IMG/VR virus record: IMGVR_UViG_3300028601_000010
Coordinates: 1 to 37,720 of that record
Reading direction: 5' to 3' (one strand)
DNA: 37,720 bases
Origin: a virus
Made by a program: the position numbers and the translations under genes. Under the pieces are notes generated by a model. The model did no database searches. It saw nothing but the letters and a program-made list of their open reading frames with translations, and had not been told where the DNA came from. Positions 5,030 to 19,013 of the stretch are shown piece after piece (within the stretch, counting starts at the first letter, position 1; each line of letters opens with the position of its first letter).

Positions 5030-5803
5030 TTAGAATATGCCTTTTTGTTCGATACTTTTATTAGCGATATCGACATACTCCTGAGATATCTCAAACCCGA
5101 TATACTTTCTTCCCGTTTCAATTGCCATCTTTGCAGTAGTGCCTGACCCGATAAAAGGATCTAAGATAATATCCCCCGGATTGCTCCATGATAATATATG
5201 ATCCTTTGCTAGATGTTCTGGGAATCTCGCAGGGTGCATACTCTTCCCATTTGCTGGCGGTATTTTCCAAATATTAAACCTCATACCATATTCACCAACT
5301 ATATTCCCTGTGGCTGAATTATACACTGTATTTCCATCAGGATTTCTAATAGTTCCATGAATTTTACATCCTGCATATTTATTCTTACGGTCTTTAATGG
5401 GATTGAATGTTTTCGGAAGTCCTTTACTAAACACAAACATATATTCAAAAATTGAAAAATATCGTTGTTTTATTCCCCCAACGTTAGAACATTGTGGTTT
5501 CTGCCATATCATAGTATCATGCAGATTAAACCCACAATCCATAAAATACAAGGCCTGCCTGAATGACGTTCCAGTTTCACTTCCATTTATGGTAGCATCC
5601 CCAACAACCCATACAACGACACCACCAACCTTTGTAACGCGGAATAGTTCTTTTGCCAATCCTTCAAAATCCCATGTAAACCCGTTATAGGTTCGAAGAT
5701 TGTCATACGGTGGGCTGGTCACCGTTAAATCAATACAATCATCATCTAACTGTTTTATCAAAGTCAGATTGTCGCCACAATATACTTTGTTTAAATCTAA
5801 CAT
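5030..5803 (-). CDS. Orphan beta-class DNA methyltransferase (N4-cytosine/N6-adenine family; the SPPY motif favours N4-C)
   Basis: Motif IV TSPPY near the N-terminus and motif I DPFIGSGTT near the C-terminus. No adjacent restriction endonuclease gene. Confidence 0.9.
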   Translation of the reverse strand: MLDLNKVYCGDNLTLIKQLDDDCIDLTVTSPPYDNLRTYNGFTWDFEGLAKELFRVTKVGGVVVWVVGDATINGSETGTSFRQALYFMDCGFNLHDTMIWQKPQCSNVGGIKQRYFSIFEYMFVFSKGLPKTFNPIKDRKNKYAGCKIHGTIRNPDGNTVYNSATGNIVGEYGMRFNIWKIPPANGKSMHPARFPEHLAKDHILSWSNPGDIILDPFIGSGTTAKMAIETGRKYIGFEISQEYVDIANKSIEQKGIF

Positions 5804-14930: not shown

Positions 14931-15338
14931 ATGACTAAACCAAAGTTACCAGAGGACCTCCAGAAGAGAGGGCGCAAACCCATAGAGATAGATTATGACA
15001 TGGCAGAGAAATACTCATCTATTATGTGTACTCAGTCTGAAATCGCTTCTTTATTGGGCGTATCGTTATCAACATTGGAACATGACCCAGAATTTTTGCG
15101 GATTCATAAAAAAGGAATGGAGTCTGGCAAGGCATCTTTAAGGAGAATGCAATACGGTGCGGCCAAGAAAGGAAATGCCACTATGCTGATATGGTTAGGT
15201 AAACAATATTTAGGTCAGAATGACAAACAGGAAATAACAGGATTAATGGGTATCCAGTTTGTTGATAATGTGCCGAAAGACGCGACCAAACCAAACAGTA
15301 TGGCTGATAATTTAGATGAAGTTGAAGAAATATATTAA
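14931..15338 (+). CDS. Terminase small subunit
   Basis: HTH-like segment QSEIASLLGVSLSTLE. It lies directly upstream of TerL and overlaps it. The size is typical. Confidence 0.7.
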   Translation: MTKPKLPEDLQKRGRKPIEIDYDMAEKYSSIMCTQSEIASLLGVSLSTLEHDPEFLRIHKKGMESGKASLRRMQYGAAKKGNATMLIWLGKQYLGQNDKQEITGLMGIQFVDNVPKDATKPNSMADNLDEVEEIY

Positions 15339-17556
15339 AGATCTTTTAACCCCCGCTTTTTATCATGCGTGGTTAGCACTGACCGACCCGAAATATACGT
15401 ATTATGTGTTTAAGGGCGGTAGGAACTCCGGGAAAAGCACATTTGTATCTATGTGTATCATCATCCTGATGATGAAGTTCCCCGTGAATACTCTCGTCGT
15501 TCGTAAGGTGGCCAATACTCTCAGCGAGTCTGTTTATGAACAGCTGATAGAAGCCATTGAACTTTTAGGGGTTACGGACTACTGGAAACGGTCGAAATCC
15601 CCACTCGGCCTTACCTATCTGCCCACCGGAAACCGGATCATATTCCGGGGGGCTGATGACCCGATGAAGCTCAAGTCAATCAAAACCCATCGGTATCCTA
15701 TCGCTATTCTGTGGATTGAAGAGGTCACCGAGTTCAAGAACGAGGATGAAGTATCGACTATCGTAAACTCCGTTATCCGTGCTGGATTACCTGACGGTCT
15801 GAAATATCATATATTTTACACATACAACCCGCCGAGATCTCTTAGTTCGTGGGTCAATATCAAATACAATACCTCGCTTATATCCAATGATACGTATGTG
15901 CATCATTCGACGGTCAATGACAATCCATACCTTAGCAAACAGCTTAAAACCACGCTGATAGAGCTTAAAGCGACGAATCCCGAACGGTATAGATGGGAGT
16001 TCCTTGGCGAGGCTGTCGGGTCCGGAGTTATGCCGTTTGATAATCTCGTGTTCCGCGAGATCACAGACGAGGAGTTACGGGCCTTCGATAATTATCGGTG
16101 TGGTATTGACTGGGGATATGCCAACGATGCGTTTGCGTATGTCAGGTGGCATTACGACCGAACACGCCGGAAAATCTATGCAGTAGATGAACGGTATGGG
16201 GTTAGGCTGACTGACCGGTCTAATGCAGAATGGCTCAAAGCTAAAGGGTATGCGAACGACCATACGTATATCAAGGCGGACTCATCAGAACCAAAAACAA
16301 TTGACCTATATCAAAACGATTACAATGTAACTAATATGCTGGCGGCGACTAAAGGACCCGGCAGTGTTGAGTCAGGAGAAAAATGGTTGAACGATGAGAT
16401 ACTGGAGATTGTTATCGACGAGAGACGGACCCCGAATATAGGGCGGGAGTTTAGGACGATCGACTATGCTCGGACGAAGGATGGGACGATATTGAGCCGG
16501 TTAGTTGACTTTGACAACCATTGTATTGCAGAGGGGACACTGATTACAACCGACGAAGGACAAAGACCAATCGAAACGGTATGTATTGGTGATAAGGTCT
16601 TAACAAGAGATGGATTCAAACGAGTATCAAAGGTTTGGGATAATGGGGTTAAGGACGTTGTTTCGGTTAAATTATCTAATGGTTATTCATTGACAGCAAC
16701 CCACGACCATAAACTATTTGTTAACTCGGAAAGGTATATACCCATAGACACCATACGTTATACTGATGAAGTATGTTGCCTAAAAAAATCGTTTATGAAG
16801 GGATCCCTTACCGATTATCTGAAAATGGATATTATAGATCGTCCCGCTGTAGTAAAAACAATTTCACGACCAGATACTTACACCGTGCGATATGGGAAAC
16901 AGAAACCAATTCTAAGGTACCTGAAGGATATCATATTCACCACAAAAACGAGGATAAATCTAATAATGACATATCCAATCTTGAATGTATTAAAGGGTCA
17001 GAACATCTATCGTTTCACTCAAAGGGGTTTCATAAAAATAATCCAGAGTTTGCGAAAGCAAATTTGGATATCCAAAGACCACTCACCTTGGAATGGCATA
17101 GGTCAGAAGCCGGTCATTTGTGGCATACAGAACATGCTAAAACAAGTCTCGGGAGTAAAGAACCAACCAAACATATATGTGAACAATGCGGGAGAGAGTA
17201 TTTCGCGATCAATACCGGAAATAATAGATTTTGTTCAAACGCGTGCAAAGCAAAATACAGACGCGAATCTGGAGTTGATAACGTCACACGGATATGTAAG
17301 GAATGCGGCAAAGAGTTTGTATCATCCAGATTTAGCGACATTGAATGTTGTAGTCACGGGTGCGCAAATCGTATCGGTGCAAGACGCCGGAAAGATGCAA
17401 GTTTATGATTTAACTGTTGAAGATTCTCACGAATATTTTGCCAATGGTATCTTAGTCCACAATTGTATCGACGCCACACGTTACGCTTTTGAGGATGATA
17501 TAGGCGTTGGAACTTACGAGGATTATGGGTTTATGTCGGGCGGTGGACTGATATAA
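15316..17556 (+). CDS. Terminase large subunit (PBSX/Terminase_3-like) interrupted by a 314-aa intein
   Basis: Walker A KGGRNSGKS. The nuclease motif is split as DFDNH / CIDATRYAF. The extein totals 432 aa. Confidence 0.9.
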   Translation: MKLKKYIKDLLTPAFYHAWLALTDPKYTYYVFKGGRNSGKSTFVSMCIIILMMKFPVNTLVVRKVANTLSESVYEQLIEAIELLGVTDYWKRSKSPLGLTYLPTGNRIIFRGADDPMKLKSIKTHRYPIAILWIEEVTEFKNEDEVSTIVNSVIRAGLPDGLKYHIFYTYNPPRSLSSWVNIKYNTSLISNDTYVHHSTVNDNPYLSKQLKTTLIELKATNPERYRWEFLGEAVGSGVMPFDNLVFREITDEELRAFDNYRCGIDWGYANDAFAYVRWHYDRTRRKIYAVDERYGVRLTDRSNAEWLKAKGYANDHTYIKADSSEPKTIDLYQNDYNVTNMLAATKGPGSVESGEKWLNDEILEIVIDERRTPNIGREFRTIDYARTKDGTILSRLVDFDNHCIAEGTLITTDEGQRPIETVCIGDKVLTRDGFKRVSKVWDNGVKDVVSVKLSNGYSLTATHDHKLFVNSERYIPIDTIRYTDEVCCLKKSFMKGSLTDYLKMDIIDRPAVVKTISRPDTYTVRYGKQKPILRYLKDIIFTTKTRINLIMTYPILNVLKGQNIYRFTQRGFIKIIQSLRKQIWISKDHSPWNGIGQKPVICGIQNMLKQVSGVKNQPNIYVNNAGESISRSIPEIIDFVQTRAKQNTDANLELITSHGYVRNAAKSLYHPDLATLNVVVTGAQIVSVQDAGKMQVYDLTVEDSHEYFANGILVHNCIDATRYAFEDDIGVGTYEDYGFMSGGGLI
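16522..17463 (+). mobile_element. Intein in the TerL nuclease active-site region
   Basis: Block A CIAEGTLI, block B TATHDHKLF, blocks F/G VYDLTVEDSHEYFANGILVHN, followed by the +1 Cys (17464). The region is visibly more AT-rich than the exteins. Confidence 0.9.
16773..17408 (+). CDS. Free-standing HNH homing endonuclease, encoded entirely inside the intein but in the +2 frame relative to TerL
   Basis: Motifs are YLHRAIWE..GYHIHHKNEDKSNNDISNLE..EH, plus two CxxCG(K/R)E(F/Y)..FCS/CCS..C fingers. Two in-frame stops (16764, 16767) precede its ATG. Confidence 0.85.
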   Translation: MLPKKIVYEGIPYRLSENGYYRSSRCSKNNFTTRYLHRAIWETETNSKVPEGYHIHHKNEDKSNNDISNLECIKGSEHLSFHSKGFHKNNPEFAKANLDIQRPLTLEWHRSEAGHLWHTEHAKTSLGSKEPTKHICEQCGREYFAINTGNNRFCSNACKAKYRRESGVDNVTRICKECGKEFVSSRFSDIECCSHGCANRIGARRRKDASL

Positions 17557-17657
17557 TATCTCTCTTTTTTGTAAATACCTATACAAACAATAATCATTTA
17601 TAAGCGCGTATATACCACTCAATGCGTTATCAGACGTGATACGCCGGAAATATTGAC

Positions 17658-19013
17658 ATGCCAGTAGCAAAAAAGCCATCTAAAACCGAACCCGAAGGGG
17701 TTGTTTCGGGCGGGGTTCGCAATCTCCCTAAGAAAGTCACTGTAGAAACCGTCAGGGAATGGACGAATAGCGTATATCTTGCCAAGAATATTAAGGATTT
17801 TGGCGTGCAGATTTACCCCGAACCGCCGACAATTACCGTAATAAACGACGATAAAGAAGAGGAAGTCCCTGAATTAACGAAAGAAATTGCGCAGAACTTT
17901 AAAGATGTTCGGGCGTGGTCGGCCATTCAGAACGTATATCCTGACGTCGGGTTCTGGGGCGCGTCTCTAAATAGTATCGGGCGCGCTCGGGTTAATGGTA
18001 AATGGACTATCACCGAGATCAGACATCTTCCTGCCGAATCGTTCACGGGATATCAGACTGGAACCATTATTAATCCACTGTTACCGGGTATTACACTCGA
18101 TTCGGACGGCACACCTATGTTTTTCCAGACGGATTATGAAACATACCAGACCAAACTCCTCACCAATGTAACATCTATTACAGATCTTTCCACCCCGAAA
18201 TATGCGGGTAAGGCCATTTGTTATCCGTTGTATAGGCTGATGGCAACGATCGAACTGGTAGATACAGCACTGTGTCAGCAGATTAACCGCATCGGTGCGC
18301 CCACTATCATGCCGCAGGTCAATCCTGACTATACACCGAAACCTACCAAAGCCGATATAACAACGTGGTTTACCGCGTTTGCCAAACGGTGGGGTAAGGA
18401 TTCTGCGTTTGTCATACCCCCGTGGGCAACGTTCCCGGAGTTGAGGATTAGAGAGAGCACGTCTGCCGCCGACCTGAAAGCCGTGCTTGTCAAGTATATC
18501 AACGATTATTTCAATCCCCTATCAGCATTCCAAACCGAGTCACGGGCCCTTGGCACCTCAGACTCAACCCGTGGTCAGGTCTATGCGGATTATATTAAGA
18601 GTCTGCAGGAGATGTCGGTCGAATGGTTAGAGCGGGAGTATAACACAATCCTTGAAATGAATGGGTACGTTAACCATTCGTGTCACATCGAGTTGAAACG
18701 CCCGACCGTTGATAAAACATCCGCCAAACTGGAACAAATCAAGGTAGGTATCGCCGGGAAGAGCCTGACCAAAGCCGAAATACGGAACAACTTAAATGAT
18801 CTCGAATTGCAGGAGACCACCCCAGAGCTTGAATTAGCTTTGGAAAAAGAGTATCAAGCCGCAGGAGGGTTTGGTTTCGGGAATGTCGCCGATGTAGAGA
18901 ACTTTACATCACCTGAGGAGAAAATCATGTCCGATACTGAGAAGCGCATCATCGAACTTAACCGGAAGGCAATGGACGGGATATACGGAATAATGAACTT
19001 GCCCACGGAGTAA
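17658..19013 (+). CDS. Portal protein (called by synteny and size)
   Basis: A 451-aa ORF between TerL and the MuF/gp7-like gene. No motif verified by eye. Confidence 0.7.
   Translation: MPVAKKPSKTEPEGVVSGGVRNLPKKVTVETVREWTNSVYLAKNIKDFGVQIYPEPPTITVINDDKEEEVPELTKEIAQNFKDVRAWSAIQNVYPDVGFWGASLNSIGRARVNGKWTITEIRHLPAESFTGYQTGTIINPLLPGITLDSDGTPMFFQTDYETYQTKLLTNVTSITDLSTPKYAGKAICYPLYRLMATIELVDTALCQQINRIGAPTIMPQVNPDYTPKPTKADITTWFTAFAKRWGKDSAFVIPPWATFPELRIRESTSAADLKAVLVKYINDYFNPLSAFQTESRALGTSDSTRGQVYADYIKSLQEMSVEWLEREYNTILEMNGYVNHSCHIELKRPTVDKTSAKLEQIKVGIAGKSLTKAEIRNNLNDLELQETTPELELALEKEYQAAGGFGFGNVADVENFTSPEEKIMSDTEKRIIELNRKAMDGIYGIMNLPTE

Follow-up and report, generated by a model that had tools for sequence, protein, structure and literature searches.

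A class-1 intein in a phage large terminase gene that probably forms a composite selfish element with an HNH endonuclease gene nested in its -1 frame

The stretch of viral DNA analysed here (IMG/VR record IMGVR_UViG_3300028601_000010, positions 1 to 37,720; 37,720 nucleotides (nt), hereafter the window) carries a gene for the large terminase subunit, TerL, into which an intein is inserted, and within that intein lies a complete gene for an HNH_3-type endonuclease that is read in the -1 frame relative to TerL. Intein and endonuclease gene together are probably a composite selfish element, consisting of a class-1 mini-intein and the complete HNH_3 gene, which would occupy the conserved nuclease motif of an essential phage protein with the HNH_3 gene lodged in the endonuclease-insertion loop of the HINT domain. 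The features on which this reading is built are as follows (aa, amino acids; ORF, open reading frame; pLDDT, predicted local distance difference test score of the AlphaFold model).

15316..17556, plus strand: TerL precursor gene (Terminase_3 / PBSX-type large terminase plus intein), 746 aa in one uninterrupted ORF
15316..16521, plus strand: N-extein, 402 aa, ending ...RLVDFDNH, with 54-61% identity to intein-less TerLs
16522..17463, plus strand: class-1 intein, 314 aa, beginning CIAEGTLI, with block B TATHDH, terminating VYDLTVEDSHEYFANGILVHN and followed by Cys
16522..16800, plus strand: N-terminal HINT part of the intein, residues 1-93, with Cys1 (CIAEG) and block B (TATHDH); Pfam Hint_2, pLDDT > 90
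16801..17337, plus strand: TerL-frame intein linker, residues 94-272, stop-free, pLDDT < 50; the same bases in the -1 frame form the body of the HNH gene
17338..17463, plus strand: C-terminal HINT part of the intein, residues 273-314, blocks F/G VYDLTVEDSHEYFANGILVHN; Pfam Intein_splicing, pLDDT > 90
17464..17556, plus strand: C-extein, 30 aa plus stop, opening with the +1 Cys of CIDATRYAF, the TerL nuclease motif
16773..17408, plus strand: predicted homing-endonuclease gene of the HNH_3 (I-HmuI-like) type, 211 aa, frame +2 (= -1) relative to TerL; Pfam HNH_3
16773..16800, plus strand: 5' shared zone, first HNH codons and structured HINT residues 85-93 (from the coordinates and the AlphaFold model)
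17338..17408, plus strand: 3' shared zone, C-terminal helix of HNH and HINT beta-strands (intein residues 273-295; from the AlphaFold models and the substitution pattern)

The preliminary description of this DNA, made from its letters alone, had proposed a 314-aa intein at 16522..17463 that splits the TerL nuclease motif, and all of its coordinates and splicing blocks were reproduced. Pfam searches of the 746-aa ORF matched Terminase_3 (E=7e-48) and Terminase_3C at the ends of the ORF, and Intein_splicing (56-59.2 bits, cut-off 35.8) and Hint_2 (32.9 bits, cut-off 28.4) with coverage of precursor residues 403-716. Excision of the intein in silico yields a 432-aa TerL with the junction DFDNH-CIDATRYAF, colinear with intein-less TerLs of 414-459 aa. 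The first residue of the intein is Cys in all aligned relatives covering that column except P0245 (Val), P0241 (Met) and P0250 (absent); T60 and H63 of block B are invariant (21 sequences aligned), as is N314 in the aligned relatives, blocks F/G ending in His-Asn before the +1 Cys. When the intein was modelled in the TerL frame using AlphaFold, residues 1-93 and 273-314 formed a beta-rich HINT domain (pLDDT > 90) and residues 94-272 were without secondary structure (pLDDT < 50), as predicted for a disordered linker. This middle part had been described as devoid of endonuclease motifs, and neither HNH nor any other endonuclease family of Pfam was matched there in the TerL frame. The HNH and its linker fill the HINT loop that normally houses the endonuclease domain of an intein, with the endonuclease itself in the -1 frame. 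The arrangement therefore differs, as had been stated, both from a canonical intein with an in-frame endonuclease and from a fractured gene, the window TerL being one uninterrupted ORF. A single TerL copy was found in the window by tblastn, with no second copy that could make the intein allele dispensable. Among GenBank phages the TerL gene had no match by megablast, indicating that the window phage has no close cultured relative.

The nested ORF was matched by Pfam HNH_3 (E=9e-14, 51.3 bits, cut-off 24.8) and by phrog_15471, 'HNH endonuclease' (E=1.4e-40); HNH_3 was the only family returned by the Pfam scan at E<=0.01, the EndoVII-like family (IPR004211) giving no match. Its position, its frame and its own ATG behind two in-frame stops had been noted previously and are correct, the stops being TGA TGA at 16764-16769 with one AGT codon between them and the ATG. 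The product would consist of an N-terminal beta/HNH core followed by two C-terminal Cys4 zinc ribbons; in the AlphaFold model (mean pLDDT 94.7) the two C-terminal CxxC...CxxxC units look like small zinc ribbons. Across the alignment of HNH homologues (86 sequences) H56, H57, N65, N69 and H78 are invariant and H82 is conserved in at least 90%, and the eight Cys are likewise invariant in the family alignment. No match was obtained when the PDB was searched with the HNH sequence, and I-HmuI surfaced through a fold search only, in which it was the top match (1U3E: probability 0.99, E=7.6e-3, TM-score 0.25-0.30, identity 18%), the low TM-score being attributable to the elongated shape of both proteins. 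The HNH ORF can be aligned end to end, from the first to the last residue, with free-standing homologues of ~200 aa. The ORF therefore begins (ATG at 16773) and ends (stop at 17406) where the ancestral gene did, and these points are not domain boundaries. At its 3' end the ORF runs into the coding sequence of the C-terminal splicing region, an overlap also noted before, and in the AlphaFold models the bases concerned (17338..17408) encode structured elements in both frames.

Close relatives were identified by a protein search with the whole precursor, which returned P0121 (745 aa, 93% identical) and P0122 (695 aa as called, 87%); a search with the 314-aa intein had missed both owing to a limitation of the word index. 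The DNA of P0121 and P0122 was obtained from five contigs (L004 and L005; L006, L007 and L008) that stem from different samples and assemblers. These differ from the window by 8.4% (L004/L005) and 15.5% (L006/L007/L008) of nucleotides, the alignment is free of indels, and in both diverged alleles the TerL and HNH frames are open over the same 636 nt. Compensating sequencing errors are thereby excluded, and no pair of compensating frameshifts that would restore an in-frame HNH was found in the independent assemblies.

Within 16773..17408 the TerL frame is free of stops and the HNH frame has none but its terminal one, whereas the third frame contains 28 and the reverse frames 9-10 each. After shuffling of synonymous codons in the HNH ORF the TerL frame remained open in 3 of 20000 trials (mean ~5 stops), and after resampling by the codon usage of the window in 87 of 20000. 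The openness of the TerL frame, which the preliminary description had suspected to be selected, exceeds chance and is kept by selection. The substitutions between alleles indicate what is being kept in each frame. In 16773..17361 they fall mainly on third positions of HNH codons (38 of 54 for the window and L006, 33 of 51 and 15 of 27 for the other two pairs), and from 17362 on, in the C-terminal splicing region, they revert to third positions of TerL codons. The ratio of nonsynonymous to synonymous substitution rates (dN/dS; Nei-Gojobori, three pairwise comparisons) in the dual-coded stretch is 0.085-0.18 for the HNH frame and 1.3-2.3 for the TerL frame; in the N-terminal HINT part of the intein the TerL-frame value is 0.14-0.24. 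Third-position bias and dN/dS together show that the HNH protein is under purifying selection and no relic, and its frame is conserved among relatives. The linker read in the TerL frame shows no conservation of its protein sequence; this frame is only kept free of stops.

The distribution of the HNH family was assessed by two further searches. Among 5.8 billion proteins, the best 120 of 207 HNH homologues were all stand-alone proteins of ~170-270 aa with 36-51% identity, and the two closest homologues on long contigs are encoded directly downstream of a Terminase_3 TerL gene and ahead of the portal gene. An alignment scan of IMG/VR matched at least 600 stretches, of which at least 556 were confirmed, and 80 loci among the matches listed were taken further. 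The resulting survey comprised 89 sequences (88 fetched loci and the window), in which stops were counted in the frame offset by +1 from the HNH match. Fifty of the 89 were nested, with the offset frame fully open and flanked by HINT N- and C-blocks and TerL exteins, the latter only 24-30% identical to those of the window; they account for about half of the 80 IMG/VR loci. In every nested case (50/50) the HNH lies in the -1 frame of its host, and an in-frame HNH was seen in none (0/50). A further 38 of the 89 were free-standing, with 1-13 stops in the offset frame, and a recognisable TerL lies upstream of at least 22 of these 38, at a distance of up to ~670 nt. Ten diverse host ORFs were submitted to Pfam: an intein family (Hint or Intein_splicing) was matched by all ten and, in addition, a terminase family (Terminase_3 or Terminase_6N/6C) by eight of them, L060 and L064 matching intein families only. 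In a neighbour-joining tree the free-standing HNH proteins form one clade and the nested ones lie apart from it, with two exceptions.

No stop was found in the host frame of any of the 37 unique nested sequences, and stops in the terminase frame of homologues, which would have pointed to a split gene, are thus absent; all three outcomes that the preliminary description had named as refuting it (compensating frameshifts, such stops, an unconserved HNH frame) therefore failed to appear. The 35 unique free-standing sequences average 7.4 stops (shuffle expectation 7.6). Among nested pairs with less than 60% HNH identity, the HNH frame averages 43% identity and the host frame 23% over the same bases, and the divergences of HNH and HINT are correlated (Spearman rho 0.46), which indicates that the composite has long been inherited as a unit. 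To judge from these comparisons, the overprinted arrangement is old and stably inherited, and the window does not offer a snapshot of a recent or transient invasion.

The element is also present in cultured phages. A tblastn search of GenBank phages identified three carriers, Clostridium phage phiCDHM19, Tetrasphaera phage TJE1 and Acinetobacter phage Highwayman (CDS, coding sequence).

L090, NC_028996.1 443-2842: phiCDHM19 gp2, TerL CDS, 799 aa; nested HNH and intein unannotated
L091, NC_019930.1 13379-15565: TJE1 terL, 728 aa; nested HNH and intein unannotated
L092, OZ038341.1 10078-12360: Highwayman TerL CDS, 760 aa; nested HNH and intein unannotated

Each has a single annotated TerL CDS without internal stop, and an HNH ORF in the -1 frame with its own start codon. 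Taken together, the element is found in phages of Bacillota, Actinomycetota and Pseudomonadota and in TerLs of both the Terminase_3 and the Terminase_6 type. The host-frame linker of the window matches a PHROG TerL profile (positions 589-707 of 799), so such precursors are already contained in reference sets, where they are labelled plain TerL. Weaker HNH matches were obtained in Vibrio phages 1.245.O and 1.238.A/B (H45-H49, e.g. NC_055736.1 6334-6963), annotated 'hedgehog/hint domain protein | terminase large subunit', and in Clostridium phage phiCD119 (NC_007917.1 1962-2462), annotated 'hypothetical protein'; these may be further nested, split or decayed versions.

How the composite may have come about is suggested by relatives that carry only some of its parts. 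Most related TerLs have neither intein nor HNH, so that the distribution is sporadic, and mini-inteins of ~130 aa without HNH occur at the identical TerL site, L009/P0123, P0244, P0247 and P0257 among them; the allele types looked for among relatives, intein-less TerLs and inteins lacking the HNH, therefore both exist. One locus, L048, has a fractured TerL with three consecutive ORFs.

L048:1288-2883: ORF 1, N-extein and HINT-N, with a stop at the end
L048:2923-3534: ORF 2, free HNH of the free-standing clade
L048:3446-3691: ORF 3, HINT-C and C-extein (+1 Ser), with an 89-nt overlap with the 3' end of the HNH ORF

The mini-inteins, the free-standing sister clade beside TerL and the fractured L048 support the entry of a free-standing endonuclease gene into a mini-intein, which is the origin that had been suggested from the window alone. 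Mobility is indicated by divergence along the gene. The synonymous rate (dS) is 0.13-0.39 in the singly-coded N-domain of the intein, as against 0.54 to saturated in the N-extein. In a sliding-window comparison of the window and L006, identity is 67-86% in the N-extein and 88-96% in the intein, and downstream of the intein it remains at 87-95% for ~300 nt before falling to 72-89%. A lower dS in the intein together with a peak of identity is the signature expected if the intein and HNH moved between lineages after the TerLs had diverged.

These observations can be combined into the following mechanism. Translation in the TerL frame would give a 746-aa precursor in which the HNH-coding bases are read as a ~180-aa unstructured, stop-free linker, and the two HINT halves would pair and splice, releasing a functional 432-aa TerL. 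Splicing would be required because the TerL is the sole one in the window and because cultured phages share the arrangement. The 211-aa HNH enzyme would be made separately, by independent internal initiation at its own start codon. During co-infection it would nick or cut intein-less TerL alleles, whose repair by recombination would introduce intein and HNH jointly; such homing is suggested by the relatives of the family and by an intein much younger than its exteins. Selection on TerL would meanwhile purge stops and frameshifts from the linker and so shield the HNH ORF from frameshifts, which may explain how the overprinted state has lasted through deep divergence.

Several points weigh against this account of a class-1 mini-intein with a nested homing endonuclease. 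Splicing through a 180-aa disordered insert and homing activity are both things that we infer. Overlapping constraint, in place of recent transfer, could account for some of the low divergence seen in the dual-coded part; however, the singly-coded N-domain of the intein is also less diverged than the N-extein, which counters this objection. The neighbour-joining tree is rough, with the 'free' L081 and L030 placed among the nested sequences. The predicted similarity to I-HmuI combines a high fold-search probability with an E-value and a TM-score that are less favourable. Finally, there is almost no Shine-Dalgarno sequence at the HNH ATG in the clade of the window (the window, L004 and L006), where the match is limited to the 4 nt TGAT; low expression of the HNH is implied there.

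It is unlikely that the nested HNH has instead been co-opted by the phage, either as a weapon that cuts the TerL of competitors or as an aid to packaging comparable to the cos-associated HNH proteins. Purifying selection has maintained the arrangement across deep divergence, for longer than would be predicted from the classical homing cycle, and this would fit such a role, as would the association of the whole HNH family with TerL; a contribution to packaging has been proposed for HNH nickases encoded close to terminases (PMC3592412). However, the sporadic distribution, with most related TerLs lacking both intein and HNH and some having a mini-intein only, and an intein younger than its exteins, as a mobile element would be, argue against it. 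The domain is also of the HNH_3 / I-HmuI-like type and not the small CxxC2 HNH found upstream of TerS: unlike the HK97 gp74-like cos HNH proteins, which are small, have a CxxC2 core and are encoded next to TerS/cos, the HNH_3 protein of the window family is encoded inside or downstream of TerL.

A second alternative concerns the route by which the enzyme is translated, for which two sequence features close to the HNH start were considered.

16782..16788, plus strand: A7 run A_AAA_AAA, a formal -1 slippery heptamer phased in the TerL frame, on which a slip leads into the HNH frame
16733..16742, no strand assigned: palindrome GGTATATACC, the promoter candidate of the preliminary description, not supported

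Most nested clades have a Shine-Dalgarno-like motif 5-12 nt upstream of the HNH start (GGAGG, AAAGGAG, GGAGGTG, AAGGTG), which argues for independent internal initiation. A route to the HNH by -1 programmed ribosomal frameshifting at A_AAA_AAA, whether the main one or an additional one, which would give a fusion of N-extein, HINT-N and HNH of ~697 aa, is quite improbable by comparison. The heptamer has the correct phase for TerL translation, a -1 slip on it would take the ribosome precisely into the HNH frame, and it is common to all three alleles of the window clade, the one in which the ATG is without a Shine-Dalgarno sequence. It is, however, confined to that clade and missing from the other nested clades, which have Shine-Dalgarno-like motifs plus a start codon; its carriers are three close alleles only, so that its conservation is uninformative, and the ATG coincides with the ancestral N-terminus of the family. 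No stimulatory RNA structure stands out downstream of the heptamer (z=+0.61), and the fold z-scores computed (+0.61, -1.24 and +0.02) support neither a frameshift-stimulating structure nor a hairpin masking the start codon. Any role of A_AAA_AAA in frameshifting is speculative. As for the palindrome, its position was confirmed, and the internal promoter that it had been taken for was rejected: no sigma-70-like site was found there, promoter-like matches in the region number 4 against a shuffle expectation of 5.0, and the palindrome is not conserved, being broken in allele L006 (GGTATATAGC).

It is very improbable that the TerL frame is not translated through the region at all, whether because the HNH segment is removed as an intron, because it is bypassed or because TerL is a split gene. 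Free-standing endonuclease genes are common in group I introns and a split version is known in L048, but a search of 16000..18000 against Rfam, including group I and group II introns, gave no family at E<=1, which makes an intron unlikely, and an intron or other ribozyme was rejected on this basis. Moreover, an open host frame would then be unneeded, yet it is open in every nested sequence and closed in the free-standing ones, and the window TerL is not divided by stop or start codons. The weakest alternative, that two compensating indels near 16770 and 17410 mask an ordinary intein with an in-frame HNH, was no more than an a priori possibility for a single metagenomic contig, nothing having been found in its favour, and was refuted to the point of being negligible by the same indel-free frame relation in five other assemblies with two diverged alleles, by its recurrence in 37 unique IMG/VR sequences and three cultured phage genomes, by the TGA TGA just upstream of the HNH ATG, by HNH ORF ends that match the termini of free-standing homologues, and by a 3' end that shares its bases with folded HINT strands.

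Some further observations were made at the loci examined. In L019 (2940-2960) and ~20 related human-gut IMG/VR loci (L020-L046) the HNH gene takes its ATG from conserved Gly-Trp codons of the intein (GGATGG), and in this clade the HNH N-terminus overlaps ~15 more structured codons of the HINT N-domain than in the window. The TerL precursor L015:1094-3757 (888 aa) contains two inteins, an N-terminal one with Hom_end_hint/Hint at residues 48-129 and a C-terminal one with a nested HNH. In L071 (689-2770) the TerL match is broken by ~940 nt between residues 308 and 325, with a free-standing HNH just downstream; an intein, an intron or an endonuclease gene may be present there as a further intervening element. 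Between TerL and the next late gene, L006 contains two ORFs on the minus strand (130 and 98 aa; 5099-5778) that are absent from this place in the window (17557-17657) and in L004. The 451-aa ORF directly 3' of TerL in the window (17658-19013), where relatives carry the portal gene, had no PHROG match at E<=0.001.

The architecture of an intein with an out-of-frame endonuclease is already known, and the window family is a new and unusually widespread member of it; the novelty implied by the preliminary description was overstated, out-of-frame endonuclease ORFs inside inteins having been described in 2025 (bioRxiv 10.1101/2025.01.02.630785). In that study Gosselin, Arsenault and Gogarten reported, in inteins of actinobacteriophages including those of TerL, EndoVII-like ORFs in 'frame 3' on the same strand, as well as LAGLIDADG/Vsr-like endonuclease genes antisense within inteins, with HNH listed in-frame only; they proposed that inteins are invaded by free-standing endonuclease genes, with continued transfer evident (bioRxiv 10.1101/2025.01.02.630785). 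The window resembles their type D in its contiguous intein with intact splicing blocks, a same-strand endonuclease at offset +2 and an open host frame, and, as in the EndoVII inteins, the host-frame peptide has no recognisable structure. It differs in that its nuclease is HNH_3 / I-HmuI-like with two zinc ribbons instead of EndoVII-like, and in that its family crosses phyla, occurs in both Terminase_3 and Terminase_6 and is not rare. In a tblastn search with the TJE1 HNH, no SEA-PHAGES actinophage was seen among the 60 matches listed and the ten commonest organism names, 395 records lying beyond these. Sequence comparison thus suggests that the HNH family of the window is separate from the EndoVII-like one. 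A September 2026 bioRxiv preprint refers in its title to an out-of-frame endonuclease in a cyanobacterial dnaX intein.

A 'hidden' out-of-frame HNH, the ShiLan domain, has been described in a mycobacteriophage DNA methylase gene (Arsenault et al. 2025, PMC11855218). It is likewise overprinted on a host gene that remains open in its own frame, and it behaves as a homing element; however, the ShiLan insertion lacks splicing domains and is retained in the host protein, whereas the insert of the window would be removed by a bona fide intein, which allows residence in an essential gene. Most nested clades described here also differ from ShiLan in having a visible Shine-Dalgarno sequence. In fractured genes, split inteins have a free-standing endonuclease gene, GIY-YIG or Vsr-like, between their halves (Dassa et al. 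2009, PMC2677866). The window shares with them the endonuclease gene at the insertion point of the intein and the overlap of its 3' end with the coding sequence of the intein C-part, and L048, with its 89-nt overlap, is an HNH-type version of that layout; in the window, unlike there, the host frame is continuous, splicing would occur in cis from a single TerL gene, and the nuclease is an HNH. With I-HmuI, the intron-encoded HNH nicking homing endonuclease of phage SPO1, the HNH of the window has the HNH_3 match and the conserved HH...N...N...H...H pattern in common. Its DNA-binding part, however, comprises two Cys4 zinc ribbons, as opposed to the helical/HTH modules of I-HmuI, and genes of the window family lie in an intein or beside TerL and not in an intron. 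Inteins with in-frame endonucleases, finally, use the same HINT insertion loop and presumably the same life cycle of splicing followed by homing; in the window, by contrast, the endonuclease is a separate polypeptide from another frame, and in-frame read-through gives a disordered spacer. For overprinted inteins, the papers searched yielded neither an HNH_3/I-HmuI-like family in this role, nor comparable breadth across TerL families and host phyla, nor the constant -1 relation, nor a quantification of frame-specific selection.

It is possible, though we put this forward only tentatively, that overprinting is an evolutionarily stable strategy and not a way-station to an in-frame endonuclease domain. 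If so, the HNH would borrow the purifying selection of TerL against frameshifts and nonsense mutations and at the same time retain its own, separately tunable, low-level translation, to which the window clade might add -1 slippage on A_AAA_AAA. The pair of intein and HNH would then escape the homing cycle of invasion, decay and loss, which would explain its persistence in phages of at least three bacterial phyla with a constant frame relation.

For the evolution of inteins, the family provides a cross-phylum data set for the model in which the splicing domain comes first and the endonuclease invades later, one HNH family holding all stages: free-standing by TerL, in a fractured TerL, nested out of frame, and the mini-intein without HNH. 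As an instance of dual coding it ranks among the clearest, with selection acting on the protein in one frame and on nothing but the absence of stops in the other. Gene callers report the long TerL ORF only, so that hundreds of endonuclease genes have gone unannotated, including those in the RefSeq genomes of phiCDHM19 and TJE1. The cultured carriers make splicing, internal initiation and homing testable.

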